A stretch of DNA of 63,481 bases, the filler included. It is 6 parts of 6 records of this genome, joined end to end, with 100 filler letters (N's around TTAATTAATTAA, not from the genome) between each part and the next. Parts side by side here need not be neighbours in the genome. Positions count along the whole stretch, not along the records: positions 13,483 to 28,156 come from SRR31156797_36893; 5 more parts are not named here. One strand, 5' to 3'. A program made the translations under genes and the position numbers. The number at the start of each line of letters is the position of its first letter. Within the stretch, counting starts at the first letter, position 1. A model generated the notes under the pieces. The model had not been told where the DNA came from. It made no database searches and saw only the letters and a program-made list of their open reading frames with translations. This document shows positions 4,605 to 34,354 of the stretch, piece after piece.

Positions 4605-4936
4605 GGTAGCACCACACGGCTCAATCGGGCAATTACAAAACTCACTGAACGATATCGACACTACGGGGATACGTGTGGCGCGGGGGATGCTGTATCCGGT
4701 CAGCCAGCGAAGCTACTGCCTGGCAAACCTTACGGTTTATCCCATGTATGTCGAAAGATCCTTCCTCTTCGCACTACGCGTCCGTATTGTAATCCGGGAT
4801 CAAAGAAAAGCAATCGAAAGAACAAGAGGACGAAGAGATACAACAAAGCATCTCAACGTCCTCTGCAATGAAACTGAAGACCTGTCTGTCTGATCCGATA
4901 CTCATCGAGCTTCAAAGGCGAAGAAACTCCAGGGCA

Positions 4937-5567: not shown

Positions 5568-5667
5568 NNNNNNNNNNNNNNNNNNNNNNNNNNNNNNNNN
5601 NNNNNNNNNNNTTAATTAATTAANNNNNNNNNNNNNNNNNNNNNNNNNNNNNNNNNNNNNNNNNNNN
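5568..5667. other. Artificial contig spacer (N-run with TTAATTAATTAA linker)
   Basis: 100-nt block; the same linker recurs five times; GC content and gene content change across it. Confidence 0.97.
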
Positions 5668-13382: not shown

Positions 13383-13482
13383 NNNNNNNNNNNNNNNNNN
13401 NNNNNNNNNNNNNNNNNNNNNNNNNNTTAATTAATTAANNNNNNNNNNNNNNNNNNNNNNNNNNNNNNNNNNNNNNNNNNNN
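13383..13482. other. Artificial contig spacer
   Basis: N-run with TTAATTAATTAA. Confidence 0.97.
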
Positions 13483-13510
13483 ATTGAACCGACGGCCTGC
13501 TGGTTACGAA
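13483..13510 (-). tRNA. 3' fragment of tRNA-Thr(CGT), probable att site (not an intact tRNA)
   Basis: Minus strand TTCGTAA-CCAGC-AGGCC-GTCGG-TTCAAT = anticodon loop, 3' anticodon stem, variable loop and T arm. The 5' anticodon stem and D arm are absent; an integrase gene is adjacent. Confidence 0.75.
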
Positions 13511-13628
13511 TCTCATCCCTCCCTGTTTTACTGGGCCCCACTAAGTTGTATTGTGTTGTAAATTCAACAGGTTGAATAAACCGTACTTTGTGGTAAGTTG
13601 TAACAAATTAGATAGTTTTTACTCCCTA

Positions 13629-13660
13629 GGGTAGCAATGGGGGTAGCAGCGAGGGTAGCA
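13629..13660 (+). repeat. Three GGGTAGCA direct repeats, 12-bp period (candidate integrase arm sites)
   Basis: Copies at 13629, 13641 and 13653 between the att core and the int start. Confidence 0.6.
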
Positions 13661-14764
13661 ATGAAAAGGAAGAAAAGTAAGTTCACCGGCGTGTACATGC
13701 GTGAGTCCAAAGACCGCAGATACAAGGGCAAGCCGGACATCTGTTTTGACGTAACTTTCAAAGAAGGATCACGCAAGCTCTGGCAGAAGGTCGGCTGGAG
13801 ATCAGAAGGGATCACTGCCGCCTACGCTTCCAAAGTCCGCGCTGAAATAATGCGCAAAGTCCGGCTGGGCATGGACGTCTCAACACCGAAGCCCATGACC
13901 TTCGGGCAGGCCTTTAAAGAATATGAAGAAAATCACCTGACCAGTCTCAAAAGCGGCGACCGGGTGACACGGCTGTATAATGCCAGACTAAAAGACGAAT
14001 TTGAGAACATAAAACTTAAAGACATCAGCACCATCATGCTGGAGAAATATAAAAACAGGCTGCTGGCTGAAGGACTGGCTCCGGCCACGGCAACACACTG
14101 CCTCGCAATCTTCAGGTCGGTCTTTAAGAAAATGGTTTCGTGGGGGAAATACAAAGGCGCGGTTCCCACAGATCAAATCGCCATGCCCAAAAAGGACAAC
14201 CGCCGCTTTCGTTTCCTCAAAAAAAGCGAAGCTGATGAATTGCTCAGCTCACTGCGGGCCAGAAGCGAAGACACCTACCTTATGGCACTGGCCAGCCTGC
14301 ACACCGGCATGCGCTTCGGAGAGATTGCCAGCCTGCGGGCAGAACACATAAGCCTGAGAGACGGCATGATCCGCATTGTTGATGGCAAGGGCGAAAGTTC
14401 CCGGACAGTCTTCATGACTACGGAGCTGCGCTACCAGCTCAGTCAAAGACACCTCAAAGCCGGAGAACTCATCTTCCCCAACCGGGACGGCAAAATCCGG
14501 CCCATGATATCAAAGAGCTTTCCGCGCACCGTGAAAGCCTTGGGGCTAAATGACGGCATAGCAGACAAGCGTGACCACGTTGTCTTTCACTCCCTGCGCC
14601 ACACCTTCGCTTCATGGCTGGTCCAGAACGGGACGCCTCTCTACACCGTGAGCGAACTTCTGGGACATTCTTCTCTGGAAATGACGCAACGGTATTCACA
14701 TCTGGCACCGGAAGTGCTCAAGGCTGCGGCTGCTTCTTTTGATCGGATTGTTGGGAATGGGTAA
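13661..14764 (+). CDS. Tyrosine recombinase/integrase
   Basis: HTGMRFGEI (R), DGKG (K), FHSLRHTFASW (HxxR), LGHSSLEMTQRYSH (H, Y). Confidence 0.95.
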   Translation: MKRKKSKFTGVYMRESKDRRYKGKPDICFDVTFKEGSRKLWQKVGWRSEGITAAYASKVRAEIMRKVRLGMDVSTPKPMTFGQAFKEYEENHLTSLKSGDRVTRLYNARLKDEFENIKLKDISTIMLEKYKNRLLAEGLAPATATHCLAIFRSVFKKMVSWGKYKGAVPTDQIAMPKKDNRRFRFLKKSEADELLSSLRARSEDTYLMALASLHTGMRFGEIASLRAEHISLRDGMIRIVDGKGESSRTVFMTTELRYQLSQRHLKAGELIFPNRDGKIRPMISKSFPRTVKALGLNDGIADKRDHVVFHSLRHTFASWLVQNGTPLYTVSELLGHSSLEMTQRYSHLAPEVLKAAAASFDRIVGNG

Positions 14765-14794
14765 ATAAAAAAAACAATTGTGATTCAAAATAAG

Positions 14795-14834
14795 CAATGG
14801 ATGGTCCACAAATAACTTTGTAGGCCATCCATTG
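14795..14834. terminator. Stem-loop after integrase
   Basis: caatggatggtccacaaa/tttgtaggccatccattg imperfect inverted repeat. Confidence 0.5.
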
Positions 14835-15205
14835 TCATCAACCCAACTTGTTGTTCATAAAATCTATTTTTTGAACATCAAAAACATTTATCCGCCATTC
14901 ATGAACATCAAAAAACTTCACGCCCCTCGGCGATGTTCAAAAGTTCCCTAAAAACATAAATCGCTGCACTTCTTCCGCTGGCTGCGCGCAACTCTCTAAA
15001 CATACCGCGCTCATTTAAAATAGACAAAATCCTGCGCCCAGTAGAGACAGATACATTAGGAATAGGCGATCTGGTTTAGAAAAAATCTATTTAGCACACC
15101 CTAACCATATCTATAGGGATAAAAATAAACCAAGTCCGACCAGCAAAATTTATTTACTCAAAATCATTATTCAGCAAGAATAGCTTTATCAGGAAGATTA
15201 AAACG

Positions 15206-15808
15206 ATGGACAACACAAATAAAAGCTTCTTTCATTCCGGCCTCTCTAACATGACCAAAAACCGGGCAATAGTGTTGCGGTTGGCGCAACAATACATCAA
15301 CGGCTTAATGGCCCCGTCAGCCACCTTGCTGGAATTGCAGCACCTCATGTATTTTATGCAGGAGGCAGGTAAAAAGTTAGAACTCAATTTTCACCAAGGG
15401 ATCTACGGTCCCTATGTAGATAATTTGCACTATCTGCTCAAGCAAATGGACTGCACCGTCACTACCGGGAACAGTGAGGACAACACAGCCAAAGAATCCA
15501 TTGAGTTCCACAAGACTGACAGCAACGATGCACTGACTTTTCTCAAAAAACACGAACAAACGCTATCCAACGTGGATAGAGTCGGTGATCTGATCGCCGG
15601 TTTTGAAACTCCTTACGGCATGGAAGTTCTTGCGACAGTGCATTGGCTTGTCTCCAAGGAAAACGCCAAGAATGTGGATGAAGTCTATTCCGGTGTACAA
15701 AACTGGAATGCCCGAAAGGCTAAAATGATTCAGCGAAGGCATGTAGAGATTGCTTACAACGCTCTTGCCAATAAAGAATGGATACAACCAGATCAACCGC
15801 CAATCTAA
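15206..15808 (+). CDS. DarG antitoxin C-terminal-domain-like protein lacking the macrodomain
   Basis: TLLELQHLMYFMQEAG..L.L.F..G.YGPY..NL and LIAGFETPYGMEVLATVHW match the recalled C-terminal half of DarG proteins. Confidence 0.72.
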   Translation: MDNTNKSFFHSGLSNMTKNRAIVLRLAQQYINGLMAPSATLLELQHLMYFMQEAGKKLELNFHQGIYGPYVDNLHYLLKQMDCTVTTGNSEDNTAKESIEFHKTDSNDALTFLKKHEQTLSNVDRVGDLIAGFETPYGMEVLATVHWLVSKENAKNVDEVYSGVQNWNARKAKMIQRRHVEIAYNALANKEWIQPDQPPI

Positions 15809-16083
15809 AAAACTTCCACCGAATTATCCTTAACGTACTGGACCAAATCCACCCTTCTGTACACGATCCTGCGACCAAGAGTGGAAAATCGCGGGCCTTC
15901 TCCATTACTGCGCCAGTGGTCCAGCGTATTCTTTTTCACTGTTAGAAAATCAGCGGCTTCTTGAACTGTAAGTGTCTCTTTCCGATTTAAAATTTCCAGC
16001 TCTACGACCGGCTTAAAAGCTTCTTCAATAGCCAGTCGAATGTTCTTCATATTTTTCTCTGAAATATCTTTTTCCAAAATCAC
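15805..16083 (-). CDS. Excisionase-like HTH protein
   Basis: LTVQEAADFLTVKKNTLDHWRSNGEGPRF..LGRRIVYRRVDL (HTH_17/Xis pattern). Confidence 0.85.
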   Translation of the reverse strand: MILEKDISEKNMKNIRLAIEEAFKPVVELEILNRKETLTVQEAADFLTVKKNTLDHWRSNGEGPRFSTLGRRIVYRRVDLVQYVKDNSVEVF

Positions 16084-16128
16084 TATCTAATTCTCCAAGC
16101 TTATTTCGTATTCCGACTCAACAAATCT

Positions 16129-16555
16129 TTGCTAATTTAGCAAGAATCTTTTACAAGCTCAAGAAAAAGATCGGCCCGTAGAATCAGTTTTGGATAGACA
16201 TCTATTTCAAAAGGCTAATTAGCGAAGTCTCTCTTGGACACGAAAAAAGAGGCTGGCAACATCCATCCTCAACACGCAAGCAGCTCGGACAGCTTCTGAA
16301 ACAGGCAAGCTCTGAGGTTTGCCAGTCGGGGAACACTCCCTGATTTTCCACCACTTAGACGGGGCAGTCTTTGTGTCGCCGTACATCAATCGTGCAAATT
16401 GCGTATGAGAAATCCCCTTCTCTACATATAGGCTTACAATCTCAGCCACCAAAGCCCGCTCAAATTCATTCCCATTATTTTCCATCATTCCTGACCATCT
16501 TAGTTAAAGATATTTCTTTGCTAAATTAGCGTTGACTAAAAATACTAATTTAGCA
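16129..16555. promoter_or_regulatory. Repeated palindromic operator GCTAAWTTAGC
   Basis: TTGCTAATTTAGCAA 16129-16143, GCTAAATTAGC 16520-16530, ACTAATTTAGCA 16544-16555; the last two flank a TTGACT -35 box. Confidence 0.6.
16219..16488 (-). CDS. Small XRE-like DNA-binding regulator
   Basis: EKGISHTQFARLMY HTH-like segment; divergent from traK. Confidence 0.6.
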   Translation of the reverse strand: MMENNGNEFERALVAEIVSLYVEKGISHTQFARLMYGDTKTAPSKWWKIRECSPTGKPQSLPVSEAVRAACVLRMDVASLFFRVQERLR

Positions 16556-16635
16556 TAAACCAACTCCATGTCAATCAGTCCAAACACACACCCAAACTAA
16601 ACGAGCAAAGGCTCCTTGAATTAATCAAGGTCACA

Positions 16636-16914
16636 ATGAAAAAGAAAAAAGGTTTCGCAAAAATTGAATTCATCGCCAATCTTGAGGAAATAAAAGCTCT
16701 CCACAAAAGCGGCTTTAATAAAAAAATGATTCACGAGCACTTGCTTGGAAAAGGCAAAATAACAATGAGTTACGCAATTTTTTGTTCATACACCTTTGAC
16801 GGGGGTCGTCGAAAAAAACAAAGCAAACCCAAACGCCCTGCCCTCACACAGGAAGACAGGCCTTTCGTACACAAGAGCATCATAACCAAAGAAGATTTGG
16901 ATGAGTTGATTTAG
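16636..16914 (+). CDS. traK: TraK-family (IncP-type) oriT-binding protein
   Basis: AKIEFIANLEEIKAL..GF.KKMIHEHL..KGKITMSYAIFCSY pattern; relaxosome context. Confidence 0.65.
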   Translation: MKKKKGFAKIEFIANLEEIKALHKSGFNKKMIHEHLLGKGKITMSYAIFCSYTFDGGRRKKQSKPKRPALTQEDRPFVHKSIITKEDLDELI

Positions 16915-16974
16915 AAATGCCTTCTTGGCAGCACCCCAAGGAAATCCCCTAAACCTTTAGCAGCACTTAATTTT

Positions 16975-18534
16975 ATGACTTCAGAGGAACACAAATGCCC
17001 CTCCCGTAAACCGGACAATTGCGACGATAAGCAGCAATTTCAAACGAGTGCGGGTTATTCACGGGTACTTATCCGGCTCAAGTTGAACAAATTCTACAGA
17101 TCCCTTTCATACACAGCAAAAAACATAATCGCAGTTCTCATCCAGTCCGCACCGGCAATGGAAAAACCGTTTCCCATTGTTATTTCCAACCTTCAGCACG
17201 CAGCCGGATGCAGCAAAGCAAGCATTTTGCGCCATATCCCTAAAGGAGAACAAGCCGGACTTTATGAACGCAAAAACCATGACGCAGGGCGCAAGCACGG
17301 AAGCATCGTCACGCTGAACAAAGAACTCTGCGAGCGATTCCTTGAACTTCATTCACAGGAATACGGCCAATCCGCCAACACCAATAATGAATCATATTTC
17401 ATTCTATTTGATGGCAGCAAAGATCAATGCGGCCAAGCCTTGGATCTGGAAAACAAAACCGACCTATTTTTCTCCAGTTTATCCAATACGGAGAAACGTA
17501 TATTCGCTGTAATTTCAAAGCTTGCAGAAGATGTCCCTAGCGGGAAAATCCATCTTATAATTAAAGACGTTGCCGAACAGACATCTTGCAGTGAAGTGAC
17601 CGCCCGTCGGACAGTTAAGCGCGGCCAAGAAAGCGGCCTTTACGCCAAGAGACAACATGAACGCGGCCCCCGTTTCGGTGTAATCCTCAAGCTAAATGTT
17701 AAGCCCATGGAACGCATGAAAGAACTGCTGCAAACGTTCCCGGCAAAAGCTGATCAGTATCAATCCGACATAACCGAACATGATCGGATTCATGAGCAAA
17801 ATGAAACTGATCATGCAACCAGACTTGATCGGAATCATTTCAGCAGTGATCCTGCGCAGGCAAAACACCCCCTCAACCCTTGTCAGTCAGGGGGTGGCAG
17901 CAATTCAGTTCCGCGCTCTGACACTCAAAACGATCGGTATCACGAGCATCTTCTATTAGATAGACAGATAGAAAATCTATCTAACGCTGAAGAAAAATTC
18001 AGTGCGCGAAGGTTGCTGGAGATCAATGCGGAGGATTTCGAAATCCACTGGCCCAGACTCCACGAACACAAATTTGGGCCAAATCAGATTCGCCAGATTG
18101 TGAACCACCGGGTTGCAGGGGGCGAAACTCTTCTCGACATCAAGAACTCACTCTATGCCGCTGAATGGGAATTAGAACGCGAAACCTTTCCCAAAAACCG
18201 CAAAGGCCCGTGCAATTATCTTTTCGCCACCCTGAAGGACACAGGCACATGGCGCAGGCCGGTCGGCTTTCTCTCGCCCAACGAACAGGCACTTGCCAAC
18301 GCAAAAAAAGAAAAGGGCGTAGTCCGTGCGCTTGCAGAACAGAAAAAACAGCAGGCAAAAAAGGAGACACAAGCAAAATCAGACAAAAAGTTTGAAGCAT
18401 GGCTCGCCACACAGACACCTGAAGCACTGGCGGCGATTGATGCGCGATGTACCGTGCCGCCCAGCACCGAGGAGTCCAGACGTAGATGGCGGAGGGTTTA
18501 CTGGGGGAAAAATATTTATCGGGAGGAGGCGTAA
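16975..18534 (+). CDS. Putative replication initiator with two tandem winged-helix repeats
   Basis: Two similar units (F..SLS.T.K.I.AV...CS.....R....G...GLY.....G..G....LN), a low-complexity linker containing DNA repeats, and a helical C-terminus. Confidence 0.55.
   Translation: MTSEEHKCPSRKPDNCDDKQQFQTSAGYSRVLIRLKLNKFYRSLSYTAKNIIAVLIQSAPAMEKPFPIVISNLQHAAGCSKASILRHIPKGEQAGLYERKNHDAGRKHGSIVTLNKELCERFLELHSQEYGQSANTNNESYFILFDGSKDQCGQALDLENKTDLFFSSLSNTEKRIFAVISKLAEDVPSGKIHLIIKDVAEQTSCSEVTARRTVKRGQESGLYAKRQHERGPRFGVILKLNVKPMERMKELLQTFPAKADQYQSDITEHDRIHEQNETDHATRLDRNHFSSDPAQAKHPLNPCQSGGGSNSVPRSDTQNDRYHEHLLLDRQIENLSNAEEKFSARRLLEINAEDFEIHWPRLHEHKFGPNQIRQIVNHRVAGGETLLDIKNSLYAAEWELERETFPKNRKGPCNYLFATLKDTGTWRRPVGFLSPNEQALANAKKEKGVVRALAEQKKQQAKKETQAKSDKKFEAWLATQTPEALAAIDARCTVPPSTEESRRRWRRVYWGKNIYREEA
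17751..17984 (+). repeat. Iteron-like YGATCRGWWTCA repeats inside the rep-like gene
   Basis: Copies at 17751, 17781, 17826 and 17931, followed by the inverted repeat ttagatag...ctatctaa (17956-17984). Confidence 0.55.
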
Positions 18535-18700
18535 GTAGTCATCCCTATAGCCCTACCCCCATATTTCCATTTTCCGGCCCTGAATTTTGATACTTCTTGA
18601 TAAATTTTGATTCACTTTGAAATTATTCTCAAAGATCGTCAATTATGCGCAAAGATTGCCAAACACCTTCCGCAAGCACTAGAAATATCATACTTTATCA

Positions 18701-18813
18701 CGGAATCCGAAGGCAGGACAGGTAAGGTAGTGCCACTTTTTTCAAAGTGTTCTCCCTTACGTCCTGCGCAGCCTGAGCGACGATTAACTTATTCACCTTC
18801 GGTTCAACGCAAA
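18701..18813 (+). other. RP4-like oriT / traJ-II-like structured element, copy 1 (predicted nick on minus strand between 18713 and 18714)
   Basis: Minus strand CTACCTTACCTGTCCTG^CC resembles RP4 nic CTACTTCACCTATCCTG^CC; lies upstream of rha-traJ-traI. Confidence 0.75.
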
Positions 18814-18881
18814 TTGTTTAAGAAATTGAGACCAGCTCAATTTTGAGCTGACATTAACTGCAAACAAAACAGGATAAATCA

Positions 18882-19697
18882 ATGACCCAAAAAGCTAATA
18901 AAAATAATGAAATGTCGGATGCCGTCGAATTGGTTATGGAAAACGATAAGCCGATGGTTTCATCTTTGGTAGTGGCTGAGTTGTTTGAAAAACGGCATCA
19001 CAACGTTCTCAAATCAATAAGCGATCTAGAAATTCCCGATTCATTTAGAGCCCTGAATTTTCAGGCGTCCTCGTATGCAAGTAAACAGAACAAGAAAATG
19101 CCATCTTTCAACATGACCCGTGATGGATTTTCCCTTTTAGCCATGGGATTTACCGGCAAGAAAGCCACAGAATGGAAAATCAAATTCCTTGAAGCTTTCA
19201 ATGCCATGGAAAGGAAGCTGACGATTCCACAGGTTGAGGCAAATTTTCAAATTAAGAAGGCAACTCCAGAAGCAATCAAATCCTTTGAAGGGTTTGCCCG
19301 CTATTGGTGTTATCTTGAAAAATTTAGTTGGGAACAAGGCAAACGACAGATTGAAGCTGCAATCAGAGTTCCCGACATTTATGAGATGGACGCGTTAGCA
19401 TTGAACAGTGCTTGGACCTATATTACTCTTTGCACAAGAATCGTTCCGCCTAAAATGCGTGGGTTGAATGTCTGTTCTGAAGAAGAGCTGTCTCCGGTTA
19501 TAGGGCTGTTGGATTACTGGTCATACAGCACCAGCAATTCAAAAGATGAGCTGGAATCCAATTTCTGCAAGCGCATGGGAATTGATGCGCTGGAACAATT
19601 GCCAAAGTCATATCTTCCGCATGCAGTGAGTCTTGCTTGGGAAAACATTCATTTTGAAACAGGTAAATGTCGTGCCGTCAAAGAAGCGAATCATTAA
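18882..19697 (+). CDS. Rha family phage-type regulatory protein with duplicated C-terminal module
   Basis: SSLVVAELFEKRHHNVLKSI...MTRDGFSLLAMGFTGKKATEWKIKFLEAFNAME is the Rha signature. Confidence 0.88.
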   Translation: MTQKANKNNEMSDAVELVMENDKPMVSSLVVAELFEKRHHNVLKSISDLEIPDSFRALNFQASSYASKQNKKMPSFNMTRDGFSLLAMGFTGKKATEWKIKFLEAFNAMERKLTIPQVEANFQIKKATPEAIKSFEGFARYWCYLEKFSWEQGKRQIEAAIRVPDIYEMDALALNSAWTYITLCTRIVPPKMRGLNVCSEEELSPVIGLLDYWSYSTSNSKDELESNFCKRMGIDALEQLPKSYLPHAVSLAWENIHFETGKCRAVKEANH

Positions 19698-19989
19698 AAC
19701 CTACGTTTCAGACGATGAGTACATAGAGATCAGCGAGACTGCGCAGCAGTGCAGTCTTTCTCTGTCTGCTTTTGTTAAGGCCGTATCGTTGGGACATGAA
19801 ATTAGAAGCAGCACCGACCAGCAGGCCCGCCGGGAACTTTTGAAGCTCAATGCAGATCAGGGCCGCTTGGGCGGCTTGTTAAAAATGATGATTCTGGACG
19901 ATGACACGAATCGAGTAAAAGCGGAGAGGCTGCTTGAGGACATTCGTCGGCTTCAGGGCAGACTAATGCAGAAGGTGAGAACCGTATGA
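19672..19989 (+). CDS. traJ: TraJ/MobC-type relaxosome accessory protein (RHH); GTG start inferred
   Basis: SLSAFVKAVSLGHEI...RELLKLNADQGRLGGLLK resembles RP4 TraJ; ATGA overlap with the relaxase. Confidence 0.82.
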   Translation: MPSKKRIIKTYVSDDEYIEISETAQQCSLSLSAFVKAVSLGHEIRSSTDQQARRELLKLNADQGRLGGLLKMMILDDDTNRVKAERLLEDIRRLQGRLMQKVRTV

Positions 19990-21611
19990 TCAGCCGAAGG
20001 ATTGCTTGCAAGCCCCAGAACGACAATTACCGCCGACTCGCAGTATACATTGCCGATGCCAAGCACAAAGGCGAAAAGAGTTTGATGTCGTGGTGTGCTG
20101 GCTGCTGGGCCGGTGATGATTACGAACTGGCCATTCAAGAAGTGCTCGATACTCAGGATCTGAATAAGCGCACCCGCAAGGAAAAGACTTACCATCTAAT
20201 CGTGTCCTTCAGACCGGAAGATGAGACCACCCTTACACCGGAAACTTACAAAGAGATTGAGCAGGGGTTCTCCAAGGCTCTGGGCTTTGAAGAACACCAG
20301 CGGCATTGCGGGGTTCATAAAAACACGAACAACCTGCACATGCATATCGCCTACAACATGATTCACCCGGAGACTTTGACCCGTCACGAACCTTACCGTG
20401 ATTTCTACAAGCGCGATCAGTTGCACCGCGAACTGGAGCAGAAGTACGGCTTGAGAGTTGATAACGGCAGGCAAAAGGAAGGCAACCCCAAACGCACAAA
20501 TGATCGAGCTGCCAGCTTCGAGGCTCATTCCGGCCAGCAGTCTTTTGATTCATATATAAAGGAACGCAAGGATTTCATTTTGGAGTCCTTGCGCTCCGCG
20601 CAAAACTGGCAATCCTTTCATAAAGCCTTGGCGCAAATCGGCATCGAGATCCGGCTGCGCGGCAATGGATGCATCCTTAAAGACCTTCATTCCAAAACGG
20701 CCATCAAAGCCAGCAGCCTCGACCGAGATTTCTCCAAGCCCAAACTGGAAGCCAAGCTTGGCAAATTTCAAAAGCCCTTCGATTTCAAGGTGGAAGAAAA
20801 AGAGCGATACATCTCAAGGCCGCTGCACAAATATCGCGGAGAACTATACGCCGAGTACCGCACGGCCATCGAAGCCAGAAAGAAAGCCTACGAGACCCTG
20901 AAAGAAGATCAGGATGCCCGCTGGAAGAAAATCACTACATTCTGGGATGATAAATTAAAGAGAACAAAAAATGACTCCCAGCTCCGCCCCAAAGACAAGG
21001 CCCGCTTGATTGCTTTGGCGATAGATAGAAAAAGCCACGAGGTCGAATTATTCAAAAAGGAAATAGCCGAAAAGCGTGCAGTCCTGCGTGAACAAACACC
21101 ATTCAGCAGATGGAACGATTTTCTGAAATGGAAGGCCGAAAACGGGGATGAAGTTGCGCTCAAAATTCTGCGGTCGAAGAAAGTATCCATCACATCTGTT
21201 CCTAAGGCGGAAGAAAGCAGTCGTAAAACCAAGCTTTCAACTTTGAAGCGTAAACAAGGCCAAATCAGAAGGGATTCCACCTTCGTCTGGAAAGACAAAC
21301 GCAGGCTGCTGTCCATTTCCAAAATGCTGCAATTGCAAGCTAAGGAATCCAACCGAAAGACTGGCGGCGATGAACAAAGTGTCATGGCCGGAATGACTTG
21401 GCGTGTGGATTCGTCCGGCAATGTCCTATACACGCTGAAGAACGGGGCTATGGTTAAAGACAATGGCGATAAGATTTTCTTCAGCGTGGGTGATTCCAGT
21501 GCGGAGCGGGTTGCGCTGGAGCTGGGGCGGATGATGTTCGGGATGAAGGCTAAGGTGTCCGGGAATGTGATTAAGCGGGGGTGGAAGAAAATTGCGTTGA
21601 ACCGAAGGTGA
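19986..21611 (+). CDS. traI: MOBP (TraI-type) conjugative relaxase
   Basis: RLAVYIAD (catalytic Tyr), TYHLIVSF, HKNTNNLHMHIAYN 3H motif. Confidence 0.92.
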   Translation: MISRRIACKPQNDNYRRLAVYIADAKHKGEKSLMSWCAGCWAGDDYELAIQEVLDTQDLNKRTRKEKTYHLIVSFRPEDETTLTPETYKEIEQGFSKALGFEEHQRHCGVHKNTNNLHMHIAYNMIHPETLTRHEPYRDFYKRDQLHRELEQKYGLRVDNGRQKEGNPKRTNDRAASFEAHSGQQSFDSYIKERKDFILESLRSAQNWQSFHKALAQIGIEIRLRGNGCILKDLHSKTAIKASSLDRDFSKPKLEAKLGKFQKPFDFKVEEKERYISRPLHKYRGELYAEYRTAIEARKKAYETLKEDQDARWKKITTFWDDKLKRTKNDSQLRPKDKARLIALAIDRKSHEVELFKKEIAEKRAVLREQTPFSRWNDFLKWKAENGDEVALKILRSKKVSITSVPKAEESSRKTKLSTLKRKQGQIRRDSTFVWKDKRRLLSISKMLQLQAKESNRKTGGDEQSVMAGMTWRVDSSGNVLYTLKNGAMVKDNGDKIFFSVGDSSAERVALELGRMMFGMKAKVSGNVIKRGWKKIALNRR

Positions 21612-21704
21612 ATAAGCCGCTCTCAGCCTCAAGGCTAAGCAGGACGTAAGGGACACCACGTTGAAAAAGTGGGCCTACCTTACCTGTCCTGCCTTCGGAC
21701 TCCG
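21592..21704 (-). other. RP4-like oriT / traJ-II-like element, copy 2, inverted relative to copy 1 (predicted nick on plus strand between 21691 and 21692)
   Basis: Plus strand GTGGGCCTACCTTACCTGTCCTG^CC; its reverse complement aligns with 18701-18813 over about 110 nt. Confidence 0.75.
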
Positions 21705-21916
21705 GGAGAGTATAATGGATTTTGCTAGATTCGGGCAAGCGTTCAAAAAAAATATACAATAATCTTGAATAGTAAATTATATTAAATAAAAATAAAGCAT
21801 AATTAAGCATTGCAAATATTTATTTTACTTTCACGATGACAAACTTGCTAATCTTGACATGATTTGATTTCTATAGCACTAAACTTTCATCATCGAAACA
21901 GGGACGACCCTGTTGG

Positions 21917-21976
21917 TAGCCAATTACCGAGGACGACCTCATAAAAGATCGTCCTCGGTAATTGGCTATTTTTTTT
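21917..21976 (+). terminator. Strong intrinsic terminator upstream of nrfH
   Basis: 20-bp perfect inverted repeat tagccaattaccgaggacga/tcgtcctcggtaattggcta followed by T8. Confidence 0.8.
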
Positions 21977-22088
21977 GGGGTTTGACTGAAGTGTAATCTC
22001 ATACTGTTCGCAGTAAGACTCATGAAAGTATCTAAAAAAGCACTTTAGTGTGTACCAAGTCAACATTTAGTACTAAAGGAGTGAAAAT

Positions 22089-22613
22089 GTGGTTTCAAAA
22101 ATATTGAGTGCTTTCTCATTAGGCTTTGTAACTATAGCAATATGTATTGGATTGTATGTTGCCTACTCATCAAAGGCCTTAACATACCTTTCTGGCGACT
22201 CAAAATATTGCATAAACTGCCATGCAATGAACACACAATACGCAACTTGGAAAAAAAGTTCACATGCATTAAATGCAGAATGTGTTGATTGCCACCTTCC
22301 GCATGACAATATAATTTTAAAATATATGGTGAAGGCTGAGATAGGTGCTCATGATGTAGTTGCATTTACTAAAAATGATTATAAAAATTCGATATCAATT
22401 ACTAAGAAAAGTGAAGCTAGAGTCCAGAACAACTGTATCAGGTGTCATGGCAAAGCTGTTGAACGATTAATGTTTAATAGCATTGGTCAATGCGAAGATG
22501 AGACTGTCTCTATGGGGAGAAAGTGCTGGAGTTGTCACAATCGCATCGCGCACGGAAAGACTAGGGGTTTAGCTACAATGTCCAATGACCTTACAGTAAA
22601 AGAGGGAAACTAA
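22089..22613 (+). CDS. nrfH: Tetraheme membrane-anchored quinol dehydrogenase, NrfH family
   Basis: N-terminal TM; CINCH, CVDCH, CIRCH, CWSCH; directly upstream of an NrfA homolog. Confidence 0.9.
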   Translation: MVSKILSAFSLGFVTIAICIGLYVAYSSKALTYLSGDSKYCINCHAMNTQYATWKKSSHALNAECVDCHLPHDNIILKYMVKAEIGAHDVVAFTKNDYKNSISITKKSEARVQNNCIRCHGKAVERLMFNSIGQCEDETVSMGRKCWSCHNRIAHGKTRGLATMSNDLTVKEGN

Positions 22614-22614
22614 A

Positions 22615-24159
22615 ATGAAAAAAGGCATCATCATTATAGTCAGTTCAATTGCAATTGCCGTTGCGCTGCTGTGGTTGGCTTTAGATATCAACACCAAAAA
22701 AATTGAAAAAGTAGCGCTGACAACCGTAGAAGGAGAACCTTCAGATCCGGCAAAAAGTTCTACGTGGAAACAGTTATATCCACGACAATATGAAACGTGG
22801 GCGAGCACCAAGAAGAACTCGGAATGGGAGGATATGATTGAAACAACTCCTGAGCAAGTTATTATGCGGGCTGACCCATATAGCCCAACAGGCCCAGAGC
22901 TCTTAAATATTCGTGGGCACTACTATTCCGTGATAGACTTTCTTACTGCAGATGGTTCAGGAATCCCTTCTAAAAATAGAAAAGACGACACAACCTCTAG
23001 GTGCTTGCGGTGTCACACCTCAAACGCGCGTGGATTGATGGAGCGTGATGGTAAAATGGAATTTCTTTCTAGCTCCTGGACCAAATATGGCAATGAAGCA
23101 TTGAACCCTATTGGATGTGTCAACTGTCATGATCCCAAGACAGCAAAATTGCGAATGGGCCCCACCGGAGTAGACGAAATGCTTACTGCGGCAGGATTAC
23201 CGGATTTCGACCATTCTTCACATCAAGAAAAAAGAGCCTTGATTTGTGCTCAATGTCATTTTGAAGCATACACTGAAAAAATTAGCTGGAAAGATAAAAA
23301 AGGCAACAGCAGAGAGGCTACCGTAACGAGAACGCCATGGAAGAATGGGTTTACTTTGGACGACATGGAGCGCTTTTACGATGATGGAAGCAACTTCTCG
23401 TCCGGCAAGCCTTACTACGATTTCATTCACCCAATATCAAAAACTCCAATAATATTCTCAGAACATCCAGACTATGAGCTTTTCAAGCAAGGCACACATG
23501 GGAAAAATGGGCTTGCTTGTGCAGATTGCCATATGCCGTACAAACAAGAAGGCGGAGTGAAGTTTACAGATCATAAAATTGGATCTCCTCTGGATACGAT
23601 AGATAGAACATGTCAAACCTGTCATCGCAAGAAAGAACAATATTTTAAAGATGCTGTAGCGGAAAAGAGAAAACGTAAAGAGGTATTGGCTAACATCGCC
23701 ATGAAGAACCTCACTAAAGCACACTTAGAAGCGGGTAAAGCTTGGGAAGCGGGAGCGACAGAAGAGGAAATGGCTCCAGTCTTGGCGGATATAAGGAGCT
23801 CTTTCTGGAAATGGAATTCAGTCGCAAGGGCTGCCTATTTCCATGCTCCTGAACAGACATTGAAAGCCTTGGCTGATTCAAACAACAAAGCCCAAAGCGC
23901 CAGATTGGCTTTGTCAAGCATCCTTGTCAAACATGGGATCACCAACTACATCGCACCTGAATTTAAAACTAAAGAAGAGGCACTTTCTATCCTGAATATC
24001 CCTAATCGGAGGGAATATATGCAGGAAAAATGCAAATTCTATGAAACGCTGGCTAAAAAATGGATTGAAGAAGGCAAAGCCAACGGAACATACGATGAGG
24101 ATATCAGCTATCCAGTGAACATGGAAAGCCGTTATACAAAGGAATGCCAGCAGAGATAA
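22615..24159 (+). CDS. Pentaheme cytochrome c552 (NrfA-fold) with non-canonical active site
   Basis: Five CXXCH motifs (CLRCH, CVNCH, CAQCH, CADCH, CQTCH); scaffold motifs RGHYY, HQEKR.L.CAQCH, ISKTP, CADCHMPY.QEG, FHAPE as in Wolinella-type NrfA. Confidence 0.88.
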   Translation: MKKGIIIIVSSIAIAVALLWLALDINTKKIEKVALTTVEGEPSDPAKSSTWKQLYPRQYETWASTKKNSEWEDMIETTPEQVIMRADPYSPTGPELLNIRGHYYSVIDFLTADGSGIPSKNRKDDTTSRCLRCHTSNARGLMERDGKMEFLSSSWTKYGNEALNPIGCVNCHDPKTAKLRMGPTGVDEMLTAAGLPDFDHSSHQEKRALICAQCHFEAYTEKISWKDKKGNSREATVTRTPWKNGFTLDDMERFYDDGSNFSSGKPYYDFIHPISKTPIIFSEHPDYELFKQGTHGKNGLACADCHMPYKQEGGVKFTDHKIGSPLDTIDRTCQTCHRKKEQYFKDAVAEKRKRKEVLANIAMKNLTKAHLEAGKAWEAGATEEEMAPVLADIRSSFWKWNSVARAAYFHAPEQTLKALADSNNKAQSARLALSSILVKHGITNYIAPEFKTKEEALSILNIPNRREYMQEKCKFYETLAKKWIEEGKANGTYDEDISYPVNMESRYTKECQQR

Positions 24160-24181
24160 CTAGTCAAAGAAATAATAATAT

Positions 24182-24214
24182 GAGGGCCTATCCAAGCATA
24201 TGAGATAGGCCCTC
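24182..24214 (+). other. Intergenic stem-loop after the nrfA-like gene
   Basis: gagggcctatc/gataggccctc 11-bp stem with no U-tract. Confidence 0.5.
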
Positions 24215-24279
24215 GCTATAACAAAATCAGCAAGTTGGTGACAGATCGAAAGTGATCATGCAACGAATAGGAGAGTGTA

Positions 24280-24774
24280 GTGTTTAGAGAAATGCGTCGA
24301 AAAAAACAAATGTTGTCAGTAGAAGAATGTGTTGCTGTACTTGAAAGAGGGACTTCGGGTGTTTTAGCAGTATTGGGAGATGAAAATCACCCATACGCAG
24401 TTCCGCTTAGTTACGTATATCACAAATCAAAAATATTCTTTCACTGTGCAAAGTATGGCCATAAATTAGATGCTATTTCAAATAGCAATAAATCTTCATT
24501 TTGCGTGATAGATAAAGATAAGATCATTCCCGATGAGTACACTACATATTTTCGCAGTGTTATTGCTTTTGGAAAAACACGTATCCTTCAAGATAAATTA
24601 GAAAAAAGAAATGCGTTGAAAAAACTAGCCAAACGCTATTCACCAAAACATGAAAAAGGAAGTTTAGATGAGATTGATAAACTCTTTGAAAAGGTTTTTG
24701 TTTTAGAATTAAGCATAAAACATATGACAGGCAAACAAGCAATTGAATTGCTAAATAATAATTCATCAAAATAA
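24280..24774 (+). CDS. Nim-like 5-nitroimidazole reductase family protein (PNPOx fold)
   Basis: MFREMRRKKQ.L, PYAVPLSYVY, HCAKYGHKLDAI, EYTTYFRSVIAFGK closely follow recalled Bacteroides Nim proteins. Confidence 0.8.
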   Translation: MFREMRRKKQMLSVEECVAVLERGTSGVLAVLGDENHPYAVPLSYVYHKSKIFFHCAKYGHKLDAISNSNKSSFCVIDKDKIIPDEYTTYFRSVIAFGKTRILQDKLEKRNALKKLAKRYSPKHEKGSLDEIDKLFEKVFVLELSIKHMTGKQAIELLNNNSSK

Positions 24775-24821
24775 GCTAGAACCACTACATTCTATTTGTA
24801 AAAATATAACTGGATGTTAAA

Positions 24822-26273
24822 ATGCACCATATTGATTTTCCTACTTATAGAGGCAGCATGGAATATTTTTGTCTTGGCTGCAACTCCCGCTTTCCAATCG
24901 ATGAGTTGTACTATACCTGCCCAAAATGCGGCGGGGTCTTTTTGTTAGAAGACAATTCCTTTGATTTGCTAAAAAGATACCCTGGTCAAAGGTGGCGTGA
25001 CCTGTTTGATTCAAGGGCAATGACTAAAGAGACGACTCTACGCGGTATTTTTCGATTCTATGAACTCATGGCTCCAGTACTCGATCAACAAGATATTGTT
25101 TACTTAGGAGAAGGACATTCCCCTATCGTAGATTTTTCCCATTCGTTACGCAGCGAGTTGGATGGCCAGATGGGTGCTTATAAAAACGAAGGACAGAACC
25201 CCAGCGCATCTTTCAAAGATCGTGGAATGGCTTGTGCGTTCAGTTTTTTGAACAACCTTAGTCGAACCAAAAGTTTTGACAATATTCTAGCTGTTTGCGC
25301 CTCTACTGGTGACACCAGCGCGGCTGCGGCTTTATATGCTTCTTACGCGGGAAAACGCGTCAAATCTGTGGTTCTTTTACCCCAAGGCAAAGTCACGCCG
25401 CAGCAGTTAGCTCAGCCCTTGGGAAGCGGAGCTCAAGTTCTTGAAATTCCCGGTTTTTTTGATGACTGCATGAACGTTGTTGAGTACCTTGCTGATAACT
25501 ATCACGTTGCCCTTCTCAACTCCAAAAACGCATGGCGAATCCTCGGGCAAGAGTCTTACGCCTTTGAAATCGCCCAATGGTACGGCTGGGACTTAGAGGG
25601 CAAATGTGTATTTATTCCAATTGGCAATGCCGGCAATATTACCGCTATTATGGCCGGTTTTTTGAAGCTTTACCATTTAGATATTATTAATAAACTCCCT
25701 AGAATTTTTGGAGTGCAATCCCACCATGCCGATCCGGTCTACCGCTATTATGCCGTCGATGACCCTAAAGAACGTCATTTTAAGCCGGTGAAAGTTCAAC
25801 CTAGTGTGGCCCAGGCCGCCATGATAGGTAAGCCGGTATCCTTTCCCCGCGTGCGATATTTCGTTGAGCAATATGAGGCTATTGGCGGCAAACAGTCTTT
25901 TCAAGTTGTTCAAGTTGCAGAACAGGACATCATGGATAGTATGCTCCAGGCCAATCGTAATGGACATATAGTGTGCACCCAGGGGGGGGAATGTTTGGCT
26001 GGCCTGAAACGCGCACGGCAACTTGGGATAATCGACGAAAAAGAAACCGCAATCCTTGACTCAACAGCACACATGCTTAAGTTTATTGGGTTCCAAGACA
26101 TGTATTTTAGCAACACTTTCCCGTTTGAGTATGGAGTTACCCCTGATGCACAAAAAGCTAACACCCCTCATCTGATTATTGAAGAGCGGGAAAAGACTTT
26201 TTTATCTGCGGAAGAATACACAATAAAAACGGCTGAGAATATTGTTACAATGCTTGGACTAGCTAAAAAATAG
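24822..26273 (+). CDS. thrC: Threonine synthase
   Basis: KNEGQNPSASFKDRGM (PLP lysine), CASTGDTSAA, PIGNAGN; N-terminal CxxC..CxxC. Confidence 0.9.
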   Translation: MHHIDFPTYRGSMEYFCLGCNSRFPIDELYYTCPKCGGVFLLEDNSFDLLKRYPGQRWRDLFDSRAMTKETTLRGIFRFYELMAPVLDQQDIVYLGEGHSPIVDFSHSLRSELDGQMGAYKNEGQNPSASFKDRGMACAFSFLNNLSRTKSFDNILAVCASTGDTSAAAALYASYAGKRVKSVVLLPQGKVTPQQLAQPLGSGAQVLEIPGFFDDCMNVVEYLADNYHVALLNSKNAWRILGQESYAFEIAQWYGWDLEGKCVFIPIGNAGNITAIMAGFLKLYHLDIINKLPRIFGVQSHHADPVYRYYAVDDPKERHFKPVKVQPSVAQAAMIGKPVSFPRVRYFVEQYEAIGGKQSFQVVQVAEQDIMDSMLQANRNGHIVCTQGGECLAGLKRARQLGIIDEKETAILDSTAHMLKFIGFQDMYFSNTFPFEYGVTPDAQKANTPHLIIEEREKTFLSAEEYTIKTAENIVTMLGLAKK

Positions 26274-26320
26274 CAAAGTGAGGAAACGCAAGAGATAAAA
26301 CACTATAGTTTCCTTCTCTA

Positions 26321-27001
26321 TCAGAACAAAGCGGTTAATACAACTGCATAGACCAAAGCAGGGAGAAAGTTGGCAAGATTGATCTCCGTCAAGTGTAACA
26401 GATTAACTCCGATCCCCATGACAAGCACCCCGCCGCACGCAGTAACCTGTATAATCATAGGATCTGAAAATGACTGCTGAAAGCCTTCTGCACCAAGAGT
26501 CAAACTTCCTTGGTACAACAAAACGGGAAGAAATGAATATATAACTCCTGCCCCATATGAGGCAGCCAGCGCGATGGAAGCAAAACCATCAAGAATGGAC
26601 TTTGTGTAAAGTATGGTTGGATCACCATTTATACCTTCCTCAAGCGAACCGATAATAGCCATGGCCCCAACACAAAAGGTAAGCGATGCCATAATAAATC
26701 CGTCAGTAAAGTATTCATTCTTGGATTTAATAACCTTTTTGAACTCATTGCCTATTTTCTCGAACAAGGTATCGAGCTGCAAAATCTCGCCAGTGACACC
26801 ACCAACCATAATGGCAAAAATAACGGCTAAAATATCTTCGTTCTTCAGTGCCATCTGGATGCCTATCACTAGCATGCAAAGGCCAAGACCCTGAAACACA
26901 ATACCTTTAAATCGTTGAGAAAATCTAGATTGCAGCCCGCAGCCGATGACTGAGCCCCCGATTATAGCAAAAACATTGACTATGGTTCCAGTTGGAATCA
27001 T
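26321..27001 (-). CDS. DUF554/YdfK family membrane protein
   Basis: GTIVNVFAIIGGS, FCVGAMAIIGSLEEG, LYTKSILDG. Confidence 0.85.
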   Translation of the reverse strand: MIPTGTIVNVFAIIGGSVIGCGLQSRFSQRFKGIVFQGLGLCMLVIGIQMALKNEDILAVIFAIMVGGVTGEILQLDTLFEKIGNEFKKVIKSKNEYFTDGFIMASLTFCVGAMAIIGSLEEGINGDPTILYTKSILDGFASIALAASYGAGVIYSFLPVLLYQGSLTLGAEGFQQSFSDPMIIQVTACGGVLVMGIGVNLLHLTEINLANFLPALVYAVVLTALF

Positions 27002-27159
27002 TACTTATCTCCTAATAATTTTTATACGGACTAGTGTCTTCGACATCCACGGATAATTTCTTCTAAGTATATTCCTAAATTAGCTGAAATGTCCTTGCAA
27101 TGTGCCAATAAATTAACAAACGAAATGCAACAATCTTTCAAAATAACACAAAAAAATAA

Positions 27160-27633
27160 ATGAATGGTTCAATGATGACTTTGGACGATAAAGATAAAGT
27201 GCTTTTACGCCTGTTGCAAAACGACGGCAGGATGAGCAATGCCAAAATGGCAGAACACCTATCAATAAGTGAATCCTCGTGCTGGCGCAGGCTGAAACGC
27301 CTTTTGGACAATGGCTTTATAATAGGTTTTCAAGCCGTGCTAGATAGAAAGGCAACAGGATTCGACGTACTTTCTTTTGTGCAAATCAGTTGCAGTCAAC
27401 ATTCAGAGGAAGCGACAGCCCAGTTCAAACGAATTATAAGGGCATCGCCGAATGTTCTCTCCTGCCATAACACAACAGGGGATGACGACTTCCTGCTTCA
27501 AGTAGTTGCAAAAGACTTAGATGATTACAACGATTTCGTTGAAGGAGTACTCCGAAAGATACCTGGAGTGGTAAACCTTCGTTCCAACATATCGCTACAA
27601 GAAGTCAAATTACCCCACCTGTTGCCGTTATAA
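27160..27633 (+). CDS. Lrp/AsnC family regulator
   Basis: LDDKDKVLLRLLQNDGRMSNAKMAEHL.IS...CWRRLKRL; TGDDDFLLQV. Confidence 0.92.
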   Translation: MNGSMMTLDDKDKVLLRLLQNDGRMSNAKMAEHLSISESSCWRRLKRLLDNGFIIGFQAVLDRKATGFDVLSFVQISCSQHSEEATAQFKRIIRASPNVLSCHNTTGDDDFLLQVVAKDLDDYNDFVEGVLRKIPGVVNLRSNISLQEVKLPHLLPL

Positions 27634-27891
27634 TGACGCAATAAATATCACAGTACACTTCAAGTCACCAAAAAGTTTTTGATATGTCAAATTACACTCT
27701 CTTACAGTCTACAGAACAGCTCGTTTGACTTTAGTCGGCCCATTATAAGTAAAACAGCTGACGTTTTTTTTGTACAAACAGTTTTGAATGTTTAGTCGAT
27801 TTCTTTTGCTATAGAGCTTTGAAAGGATACAAATTTCAGGTAAACTTATATTTATCTGTGTTGAATTTCACATACAAAGGGATAGTTTTTT

Positions 27892-28156
27892 ATGAGAAAG
27901 TTCTATGAAGGTAAATTAGTGCGGAAGGCTATTGTTTTGGTTCTTGCTTTTAGCTTTGCAGGTGTGCTTGTTGTCTTTTATTTTTATTTCAATTCGTTGG
28001 ATGATTTAGCTACTGAAAACATGCGCCAAAGAGTTATGGTTGCCTTAAATGTTGAAGCTAGTATTCAGCAGGAAATCCTTGAAGAATATACATTTTGGGA
28101 CGAAGCATATGAAAATTGCATTGTTAATGTAAATAATGACTGGATTTCTCTTAATA
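27892..28156 (+). CDS. Membrane sensor protein N-terminus (CHASE4-like), truncated by contig edge
   Basis: TM helix followed by EYTFWDEAYE. Confidence 0.55.
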
Positions 28157-28256
28157 NNNNNNNNNNNNNNNNNNNNNNNNNNNNNNNNNNNNNNNNNNNN
28201 TTAATTAATTAANNNNNNNNNNNNNNNNNNNNNNNNNNNNNNNNNNNNNNNNNNNN
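28157..28256. other. Artificial contig spacer
   Basis: N-run with TTAATTAATTAA. Confidence 0.97.
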
Positions 28257-30944: not shown

Positions 30945-31168
30945 TTTTAAAATTTCCTAGTATTTTAGCTCTTATTATATCTTTTTACAAAATAAACCTT
31001 ATGTCAATAGATAAAAATATCGTAAACTTTTTTATATAGTATAATTTAGTAACATAAAATAAAATTCTTTAGAATATTATTATACTATATAAAAGTTTAC
31101 AGCTAGTTAACATTTTAAATGCGTTATTTTTTAGTTATTTTTGTTATAAAGTTATGAATAGAAAGTTT

Positions 31169-31633
31169 TTAGTTTTTAGTTTGTAACTTGTCTTTTTTTG
31201 ATTGTTTATAACTAATATAAAGAATCAAAACGACTGCAATATCTATTAAGACATCAGCTAGATTAAATATCGCAAAGTCAAATCCACAATGCCAGTATAC
31301 ATAATCAACCACTCCACCATGGATAAATCGATCATAAATATTGCTAATTCCACCAGCAAACAATAATGCAACAGGTATATAGTAAGAGTTAAAAAGTTCT
31401 TTATTGATGAAAAGATAGATCACGCCAATACATAATACAATAATCTGAATATATTTTAAATGCTCTTCTAAAAAAGAGAACATTGAAAAGGCTACACCAT
31501 AGTTATATGCTAAAACTAAAGAGATACACTCCCCTTTAGCCTCAAAGCCATCTACAAAAATTGCTTTTATGTATTGGTCAATAAAAAAAAGCACTATGAA
31601 AAGTGCTATAAAAGTTATACTTTTCTTTAACAT
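31169..31633 (-). CDS. lspA: Lipoprotein signal peptidase II
   Basis: [33 protein letters not shown]. Confidence 0.95.
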
Positions 31634-34254: not shown

Positions 34255-34354
34255 NNNNNNNNNNNNNNNNNNNNNNNNNNNNNNNNNNNNNNNNNNNNTT
34301 AATTAATTAANNNNNNNNNNNNNNNNNNNNNNNNNNNNNNNNNNNNNNNNNNNN
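34255..34354. other. Artificial contig spacer
   Basis: N-run with TTAATTAATTAA. Confidence 0.97.

Follow-up and report, generated by a model that had tools for sequence, protein, structure and literature searches.

A stand-alone homologue of the DarT-sequestering domain of DarG on an integrative mobilizable element: a candidate orphan antitoxin

Background

Why would a mobile element carry the toxin-binding half of an antitoxin with neither the other half nor the toxin itself? The question is raised by a gene at positions 15206..15808 of a stretch of 63,481 nucleotides (hereafter the window), the product of which matches only the C-terminal, DarT-sequestering domain (CTD) of the antitoxin DarG. 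The DarTG system, which is widespread, serves defence and addiction and acts by attacking single-stranded DNA (ssDNA). In an earlier note, made from the letters of the window alone, the gene was proposed to lie in the leading region of a conjugative element and to shield incoming ssDNA from the DarT of the recipient cell. Its premise, namely that the DarG CTD binds and inhibits DarT independently of hydrolysis, is supported by the accessible text of PMC7003065, according to which the CTD of DarG from enteropathogenic Escherichia coli (EPEC; aa 127-330) has no glycohydrolase activity, binds DarT and suffices on its own to prevent toxicity. As cited in the accessible part of PMC11481870, the CTD occludes the DNA site of DarT by ssDNA mimicry. 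The DarT counter-measures known so far are phage proteins, i.e. the hydrolases AdfN and AdfM and the small binders AdfA and AdfB, and no paper on stand-alone DarG2 C-terminal domains on mobile elements was found in our search. In this paper, we describe the gene, the element that carries it and its relatives, and we argue, with about even confidence, that it is a maintained orphan antitoxin with a predicted DarT-neutralising activity.

Results and discussion

The gene product is a homologue of the DarG C-terminal domain alone

15206..15808, plus strand: stand-alone DarG CTD gene, 200 aa, with profile, PDB and Foldseek matches

The open reading frame (ORF) begins with ATG, ~10 nt 5' of which stands AGGAAG. 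Its residues 11-187 align with positions 161-338 of the 338 positions of the NCBIfam DarG profile NF048014 (E 6e-43), with a score of 147.4 bits that lies below the whole-protein cut-off of 250 bits, and the DarG profile of PADLOC is matched over positions 158-328 of 329 (E 1.4e-43). Among known structures, the DarG CTD chain of the M. tuberculosis DarTG crystal (PDB 7yk3_B) is matched with E 1.9e-21. A Pfam search of the ORF returned no family at E<=1, including Macro (PF01661) and SocA_Panacea (PF13274). Furthermore, an AlphaFold model of the ORF, built on a 75-row alignment, has a mean pLDDT of 84.8 and a pTM of 0.83, with the weakest residues at 81-100, and Foldseek retrieves with it at E<=0.001 only 7yk3_B and 7yk3_D (TM 0.77/0.82, rmsd 2.8 A, 187 columns). 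By sequence and by fold, the product is a true homologue of the DarG CTD alone; the earlier note had described it as a 200-aa ORF matching only the C-terminal half of DarG, which is borne out by both profiles and by 7yk3_B, and the non-DarG fold that it had named as a possible counter-finding did not turn up with Foldseek.

As for its family, homology to the C-terminal DarT-binding domain of DarG is present and the N-terminal macrodomain is absent; the nearest full-length DarG (P0002) is 54% identical, and the protein is far nearer to bona fide DarG than to any other family. In a DarTG operon darT lies immediately upstream; here, the CTD gene is preceded by an integrase gene and 441 nt of non-coding DNA. 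The gene does share with known anti-DarT factors their occurrence as orphans on mobile elements, since int, a gene like xis, an element like oriT and the genes of Rha, NikA and a relaxase make up its context, and its cassette is missing from related elements. When the complex of the CTD ORF with the DarT of a related island (L170, see below) was predicted with both partners given as alignments, the score was 0.71, against 0.52 in a control in which the DarT was replaced, a difference that favours neither binding nor its absence. The net charge of the CTD, -2 against a median of -1, is uninformative on ssDNA mimicry.

Panacea/DUF4065 proteins (PanA, SocA) are likewise stand-alone helical antitoxin domains, and the accessible text of PMC13621843 states them to be homologous, distantly, to the DarG CTD. 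One alternative is that the CTD was neofunctionalised after the loss of the macrodomain and serves a new partner, which would be either another toxin, as in Panacea, or another ssDNA-binding enzyme that it inhibits as an ssDNA mimic. Panacea pairs with many toxins according to the part of PMC8832971 available, which speaks for such a change of partner. On the other hand, unlike in Panacea systems, no candidate toxin gene adjoins the CTD gene, int being its upstream and a convergent HTH_17 gene its downstream neighbour, and the missing PF13274 match and the identity to full-length DarG given above also argue against a new partner. We consider this alternative quite improbable.

No macrodomain or darT is detectable in the window

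The window is not one contig; it consists of six contigs joined end to end, with five artificial linkers between them.

5568-5667, 13383-13482, 28157-28256, 34255-34354 and 40467-40566: artificial linkers (44 N, TTAATTAATTAA, 44 N)

The contig of the CTD gene itself covers 13483..28156 (14.7 kb), bounded by the linkers at 13383-13482 and 28157-28256. Statements on synteny or absence are void across the linker points, and the absence of darT and macrodomain reported here covers 14.7 kb of linked DNA and ~49 kb of unlinked pieces (~63 kb).

A second alternative is that the gene is an inert remnant: an ancestral darTG on the element would have lost darT and the macrodomain by deletion, leaving a CTD frame that drifts without function. 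The search for remains of the lost parts was made with 31 full-length DarG and 22 DarT proteins cut from related loci. In tblastn against the window, chance matches only were obtained with the 22 DarT queries (best E 0.011, inside a PNPOx gene) and with the 31 macrodomain queries (best E 0.14), and none of these matches lay in 14765-15205. The macrodomain HMM gave at best E 0.12 at Z=1 on the upstream frames, among which the frame of the CTD ORF was unlisted, and the alignment with the full-length DarG HMM starts only at profile position 163. A local alignment of the in-frame upstream translation with the 31 macrodomains was equalled by 107 of 300 shuffles, and colinear semi-global alignment (200 shuffles) gave z of -0.37 and -0.97. 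No macrodomain or darT, decayed or intact, is thus detectable in the window. The statement in the earlier note that neither lies upstream or elsewhere in the contig holds within the window, and the decayed copy by which it would have recognised a simple pseudogene did not turn up under tblastn.

Six full-length DarG alignments in tblastn extend in frame, across stop codons, to 15116, 14987 or 14912, and the 441-nt gap upstream of the CTD gene has about the length of a macrodomain. A decayed macrodomain was considered at this place and rejected: the 'GIKINQVRP' that stands opposite 'GLxWxxVRP' in the extension is taken as chance, the HMM and shuffle tests being without signal.

14765..15205, no strand assigned: intergenic region with hairpin and repeats, without detectable macrodomain remnant

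This region shows features of regulatory DNA, i.e. an 18-nt hairpin at 14795-14834, just 3' of int, and the repeat TGAACATCAAAAA, which stands directly at 14872 and 14902 and as an inverted copy at 14932-14942. A promoter scan upstream of the CTD ORF found none. A related repeat, TTGTTGTTCATAAA, lies at 14848; the repeats at 14848-14942 belong to the backbone common to cassette-less variants (see below) and may be operator or recombinase arm sites.

The gene is cargo of an integrative mobilizable element

13637..14764, plus strand: tyrosine recombinase (integrase, int), 375 aa, PF00589 1.1e-33
15805..16083, minus strand: HTH_17 excisionase-like (xis-like) gene, PF12728 5.5e-11
18698..18815, plus strand: oriT-like conserved hairpin ('oriT copy 1') upstream of the mob operon, from conservation and folding
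18882..21611, plus strand: mobilization (mob) module, with Rha-like 18882-19697, NikA-like 19633-19989 and relaxase 19986-21611
21589..21707, minus strand: second, inverted oriT-like copy, overlapping the 3' end of the relaxase gene (last codons)

The HTH_17 gene is convergent with the CTD gene and overlaps its 3' end by 4 nt. Between it and the mob module lie small ORFs, including that of a DUF5338 protein, and then the gene of a 519-aa family-less protein. The relaxase is of the MobA/VirD2 type with TraI_middle, and downstream of it are found nrfHA and other chromosomal-looking genes. As relaxases 64-73% identical to it are encoded in Maridesulfovibrio and Desulfovibrio chromosomes, the host range is likely of the Desulfovibrionaceae type. 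The CTD gene is cargo between int and the xis-like gene on an integrative mobilizable element of this type. The mobile context assumed in the earlier note stands, but what integrase, oriT and relaxase make up is a small integrase-bearing mobilizable island and no conjugative plasmid. A search for the element ends found no direct repeat between the contig start (13483-13640) and the DNA behind the relaxase gene, and no tRNA.

The 519-aa protein (16975-18534, plus strand, between the regulators and oriT) has no Pfam family. A relative 45-47% identical to it is encoded in the related locus L167 on the opposite strand, ~5-6 kb downstream of the relaxase gene, and a short 61% match stands at the end of L166. 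The protein may serve the element in replication or processing.

The first oriT copy, proposed in the earlier note, proved to be real: 17 related loci have it immediately before rha or nikA, with 72-85% nucleotide identity, and it folds as a long hairpin (z -2.9) in which 3 pairs are kept by compensatory changes among 16 sequences. It contains ACGTCCTGC (ACATCCTGC in L185), which we take to resemble the nick motif of the RP4 type. The second copy is 86-96% complementary to the first, depending on the segment, and is absent from all related loci, so that the mob module is bracketed by inverted oriT-like repeats in the window only; this copy may represent an inversion, the scar of a recombination event or what is left of a second element.

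Position and strand of the gene relative to oriT

The CTD gene lies 2.9-3.5 kb from oriT copy 1, on the side opposite to the relaxase operon and co-oriented with it. We assume here that the relaxase operon is the last to enter, as is the rule in NikA/TraI-type systems; the CTD side would then enter first, with the minus strand as the transferred strand (T-strand). The position of the gene would fit the geometry of a leading region only if this rule applies to the element. This geometry is the ground for a third alternative, that of the earlier note, in which the gene is transcribed from the incoming T-strand and its product protects the transferred ssDNA from the DarT of the recipient; leading regions are indeed enriched in anti-defence genes, as stated in the part of PMC11541004 that was accessible. 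Several points count against it, however. The word 'DarG' has 0 occurrences in that text. The motif GTCCTGC (TCCTG-type) stands in both arms of the hairpin, hence on both strands, so the nicked and transferred strand is unreadable from sequence. An element of ~8 kb would enter within seconds, which leaves position little weight. In addition, folding of the minus strand of 14765-15205 yields z -2.9; this signal stems from a number of small hairpins, and a long stem such as that of a large Frpo-like (ssDNA-promoter) structure was not seen.

The cargo of relatives bears on the same question. For 11 close relatives of the mob module, it was surveyed over the 6 kb that precede the oriT-like element.

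L162: Dcm, Vsr and a HATPase protein
L163: weak Csx3 match
L164: reverse transcriptase (RT), Cas1 and Cas2
L165: Cas10/Cmr2
L166, L167, L168 and L169: type I or IIG restriction-modification (RM) genes
L161: insertion sequence (IS) and glycosyltransferases only
L170 and G227 (L228): complete darT (PF14487 1.8e-59) with darG, same strand, at 1-1.2 kb from the oriT-like element on its upstream side

The side of oriT on which the CTD gene lies thus holds defence cargo in 10 of the 11 relatives (9 without the weak Csx3 match), full darTG in two of them, and known anti-defence genes were not seen beside oriT in these relatives. This is at odds with the anti-defence cargo expected from the earlier note. 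We judge protection of the entering strand to be unlikely overall, a judgement that lies within that on a functional orphan antitoxin, and no more likely than the neutralisation of a darTG on a sibling element. The remnant, on the other hand, is favoured by the two siblings in which full darTG lies on this side of oriT and on the same strand. Because the DarGs of L170 and G227 are only 35% identical to the window CTD, the orphan is no recent derivative of these.

The relatives with Rha, NikA and relaxase genes (L161-L170, L228) lie in Maridesulfovibrio and Desulfovibrio chromosomes, with RM, type III CRISPR-Cas/RT-Cas1 or DarTG by oriT. Such mob modules resemble the terminal part by which mobilizable defence islands would be moved, with DarTG as a recurrent cargo.

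The int-xis slot swaps its cargo

Metagenome contigs were aligned to 14600-16500 at 80% likeness; these are contigs only and come from other organisms.

14954..15799, no strand assigned: variable cargo cassette, CTD gene and 252 nt upstream, 846 nt, joint 14953->15800

Three states of the slot were found. In the first (one X2 DNA contig and one X17 contig), an int/xis backbone of ~90% identity has 232 other letters in place of 14954-15799. X17 is an RNA library, the contigs of which say nothing on transcription and the uncovered parts of which are meaningless; they comprise this cassette-less variant and a portion of one variant CTD gene. In the second (an X2 contig), 15529-15881 differs at 2 of 353 positions and the 5' part is diverged; 822 extra nt lie between int and the shared part, and the CTD begins with the canonical 'SMTKGRAAL'. 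By arithmetic alone the extra 822 nt are long enough for darT and a macrodomain, and the occurrence of such a longer variant in the same slot is a further point for the remnant. In the third (X3 and X4 contigs), the sequence is ~95% identical from 15527 on and diverged before, and an insert of 191 nt follows the stop codon. Since the contigs show both the 232-nt replacement and longer diverged variants, the slot swaps cargo; the CTD gene with the 252 nt upstream is an exchangeable cassette, and the C-terminal subdomain is common to the variants.

Other stand-alone CTDs begin at the same domain boundary

L033:7950-8549 (and L104): stand-alone CTD, 199 aa, adjoining type I hsdR
L149:9974-10549: stand-alone CTD, 191 aa, between hsdS/AlbA_2 and hsdR, beside GmrSD
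L229:1597-2211: stand-alone CTD, 204 aa, beside an MTase-S fusion and GmrSD
L232:5914-6606 and 4219-4719: stand-alone CTD, 230 aa, and a partial copy, beside an MTase-S fusion and GmrSD

The survey of stand-alone homologues suggested in the earlier note brought up these further cases, which are rare and lie mostly in RM/defence islands. The ORFs of L033, L149, L229 and L232 are found in type I RM/GmrSD islands with no DarT or macrodomain adjoining, and those of L033/L104, L149 and L229/L232 match the DarG profile from position 157-164 to 338. With that of the window included, these matches show at least four independent lineages whose stand-alone ORFs share this starting boundary. A tree of 154 CTD rows needs 3 origins, i.e. 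the window with P0001 and P0082 (see below), L033/L104, and L149. Truncated leftovers also exist, which supports the remnant, but they differ in form: P0003 keeps half a macrodomain, and G151 only the last 80 residues, in a 91-aa fragment with no DarT. A 5' boundary that coincides with the domain boundary is unlike such random truncations and speaks against the remnant.

Among 81 near-length homologues, 64 have PF01661 and 17 do not, the latter mostly on contigs of <2.5 kb. At 2 of the 10 loci on viral contigs, the CTD stands alone and has no DarT in its vicinity. The gene hsdR is near 26 of 81 long loci. The nearest clusters in the ESM Atlas (scores 0.91-0.93, 53-210 members, given without alignment) are 'hypothetical proteins' of 177-194 aa with no Pfam family; they hint that stand-alone forms may be more frequent than the present counts show.

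Maintenance or decay of the frame

P0001, a protein of 201 aa, is 89% identical and 96% similar to the window CTD, with no gaps and with the same stop and C-terminus, and P0082 falls in its cluster and differs little from it. In P0001, the Met lies one codon upstream, and the position of the window's Met reads Ile. All three sequences retain a frame of 200 or 201 codons with a start codon and the same stop; the open frame and the start have thus survived ~11% divergence, which counts against the remnant. The 17 alignable columns in which the two differ are among the more variable columns of the family (entropy 1.87 vs 1.40, Mann-Whitney p=0.036). Moreover, the 200 CTD codons stay open while the flanking former coding DNA has been erased beyond detection, by which uniform neutral decay is disfavoured. 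The remnant is also opposed by the C-terminal half, in which only 5 of 33 conserved columns are changed, all conservatively, and which is 95-99% identical in variants from three runs and three studies. We regard the remnant as possible, though on the unlikely side. DNA relatives of the CTD gene from which dN/dS could be computed were sought in genome, metagenome and viral contigs, with none above 46% identity; P0001 and P0082 are known only as proteins.

Against a maintained DarT-neutralising antitoxin, a considerable number of observations have to be set. The first concern the sequence itself. Across 143 other CTDs, 74 columns are conserved to at least 80%, and of these the window CTD keeps 54 and P0001 56, fewer than any of these others (61-74, median 71); an invariant Lys is replaced by His, and the motif EGHFIxGYGD reads DCTVTTGNSE. 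The stem branch of the orphan lineage has 0.92 substitutions/site vs 0.27 for the nearest full-length sister P0002, i.e. the lineage evolved ~3.4x faster. Both the losses and the rate are what the remnant would predict, and the divergence fits relaxed constraint as well as retargeting. The losses are denser in the N-terminal half (15 of 41 columns vs 5 of 33, Fisher p=0.064); as many as 15 losses in the N-half are seen in 0 of 140 other CTDs, and as many as 5 in the C-half in 3 of 140. Such a turnover, concentrated in the N-half and followed by conservation within the clade, would also suit a new partner. The other stand-alone CTDs show the same pattern in a milder form, with 5 N-half losses each vs a median of 1. 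Divergence is also expected if residues facing the macrodomain or a cis partner were freed and the DarT-binding core was kept.

Rarity weighs in the same direction. In genomes, 79 of 80 loci have an ORF of at least 344 aa and 1 of 80 is of the stand-alone form. ORFs of <300 aa occur at 10 of 80 metagenome loci; two of these are clear stand-alones and two are ambiguous, the other six extending beyond the contig end. In plasmids (100 records), 36 of the 40 among the matches listed are annotated as macro-domain or Appr-1-p proteins, and phage records with a CTD match number 2. Within the family to which the relaxase relatives belong, 301 genomes were sampled; DarT is found in 15 and CTD matches in 8, seven of them in frames of 354-472 aa in DarT-positive genomes and one being the 91-aa fragment of G151, with no full stand-alone CTD. 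The window's type of CTD is rare, and potential target DarT is present in the host range. Furthermore, RM/defence islands, where darTG is usually located, are also where the other stand-alone CTDs lie, as would be expected of remnants, and the defence cargo beside oriT in relatives of the element belongs here as well.

The remaining points concern the biology of the system. DarT in uninfected cells is already held by DarG, and conjugative entry need not meet active DarT. No paper was found in which DarTG alone blocks conjugation, the accessible text of the one relevant case dealing with a combined RM-Kiwa-DarTG fragment. Antitoxins are usually specific for the cognate toxin, as stated in the accessible part of PMC11825919, and a cognate DarT for the window CTD was not found within the window.

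A predicted mechanism and its relation to known systems

If the gene is nevertheless a maintained orphan antitoxin, its product would be a stand-alone DarT-binding domain of a DarG2-type antitoxin, kept as exchangeable cargo between int and xis. It would bind a DarT2 stoichiometrically in the ssDNA-binding groove and block the ADP-ribosylation of ssDNA without glycohydrolase activity, and the element would gain wherever a DarTG system is met. Such a system could be a defence system of the recipient, acting on transferred or replicating ssDNA, or it could be the addiction/defence module of a rival sibling element in the same host or att site. The darTG of a rival sibling is at least as likely a target as recipient defence, and the three states of the int-xis slot in contigs make this idea of sibling displacement (anti-addiction) concrete. 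That the diverged CTD still binds a DarT, which DarT it would be and when the gene would be expressed are matters that we infer. A wider proposal, which we put forward as doubtful, is that stand-alone CTDs are recurrent, selected, enzyme-free 'DarT sponges' with at least 4 origins by shedding of darT and macrodomain, that they serve as a weapon between sibling islands, and that their N-half was retargeted to the DarT of rivals. If this were true, cells held by a darTG-carrying sibling could be entered or displaced by an island that has the sponge alone.

How does the orphan compare with what has been described? It is like the CTD of DarG2 in DarTG2 (7YK3; EPEC aa 127-330) in having homologous sequence and fold; unlike DarG2, it has its own start, no macrodomain and no adjoining darT, shows changes at 20 of the 74 conserved residues, and is the cargo of a mobilizable island. 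Like the phage anti-DarT factors AdfB, AdfN, AdfM and AdfA, it is an orphan antitoxin-like protein on a mobile element, here as predicted from sequence. Among these, AdfB (ICP1 Gp145) has been proposed to bind DarT like the DarG C-terminus (PMC11481870), and AdfN (NADAR) and AdfM (macrodomain) are orphan enzymatic halves (PMC11825919, PMC13309987, PMC13716836). The Adf proteins differ from it in that they are encoded by phage genes, AdfB having 77 aa and <15% similarity to DarG, and AdfN and AdfM representing the hydrolase half, whereas the window CTD is the whole sequestering half, a clear sequence homologue, and lies on an integrative mobilizable element. Orphan antitoxin-like anti-DarT factors are already known, and a stand-alone DarG CTD would be a variant of them. 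For orphan antitoxins, a neutralising role against toxins of incoming or rival elements has also been proposed (accessible text of PMC11825919). With anti-addiction orphan antitoxins and orphan immunity genes the CTD shares the state of an antitoxin without its toxin; those antitoxins are usually chromosomal and full-length, unlike this single domain carried by the mobile element itself.

Should the gene act as predicted, mobile elements other than phages would also counter DarT, and both halves of DarG would have been co-opted separately as orphan antitoxins. A predicted DarT inhibitor of 200 aa would be a simple and testable reagent. In addition, siblings that differ in whether one and the same slot holds darTG, only the sponge or nothing would offer a natural system for the study of rivalry based on toxin-antitoxin (TA) modules.

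Composition of the window

The G+C content differs sharply along the window: the outer pieces have 0.50-0.55, the part at 28-40 kb ~0.30. The two pieces in 28257-40466, of ~30% G+C, carry housekeeping genes (SecF, a phosphoglucosamine-mutase-like protein and LspA), and the other pieces have 42-55% G+C. Given this contrast, the assembly of the window may mix organisms.

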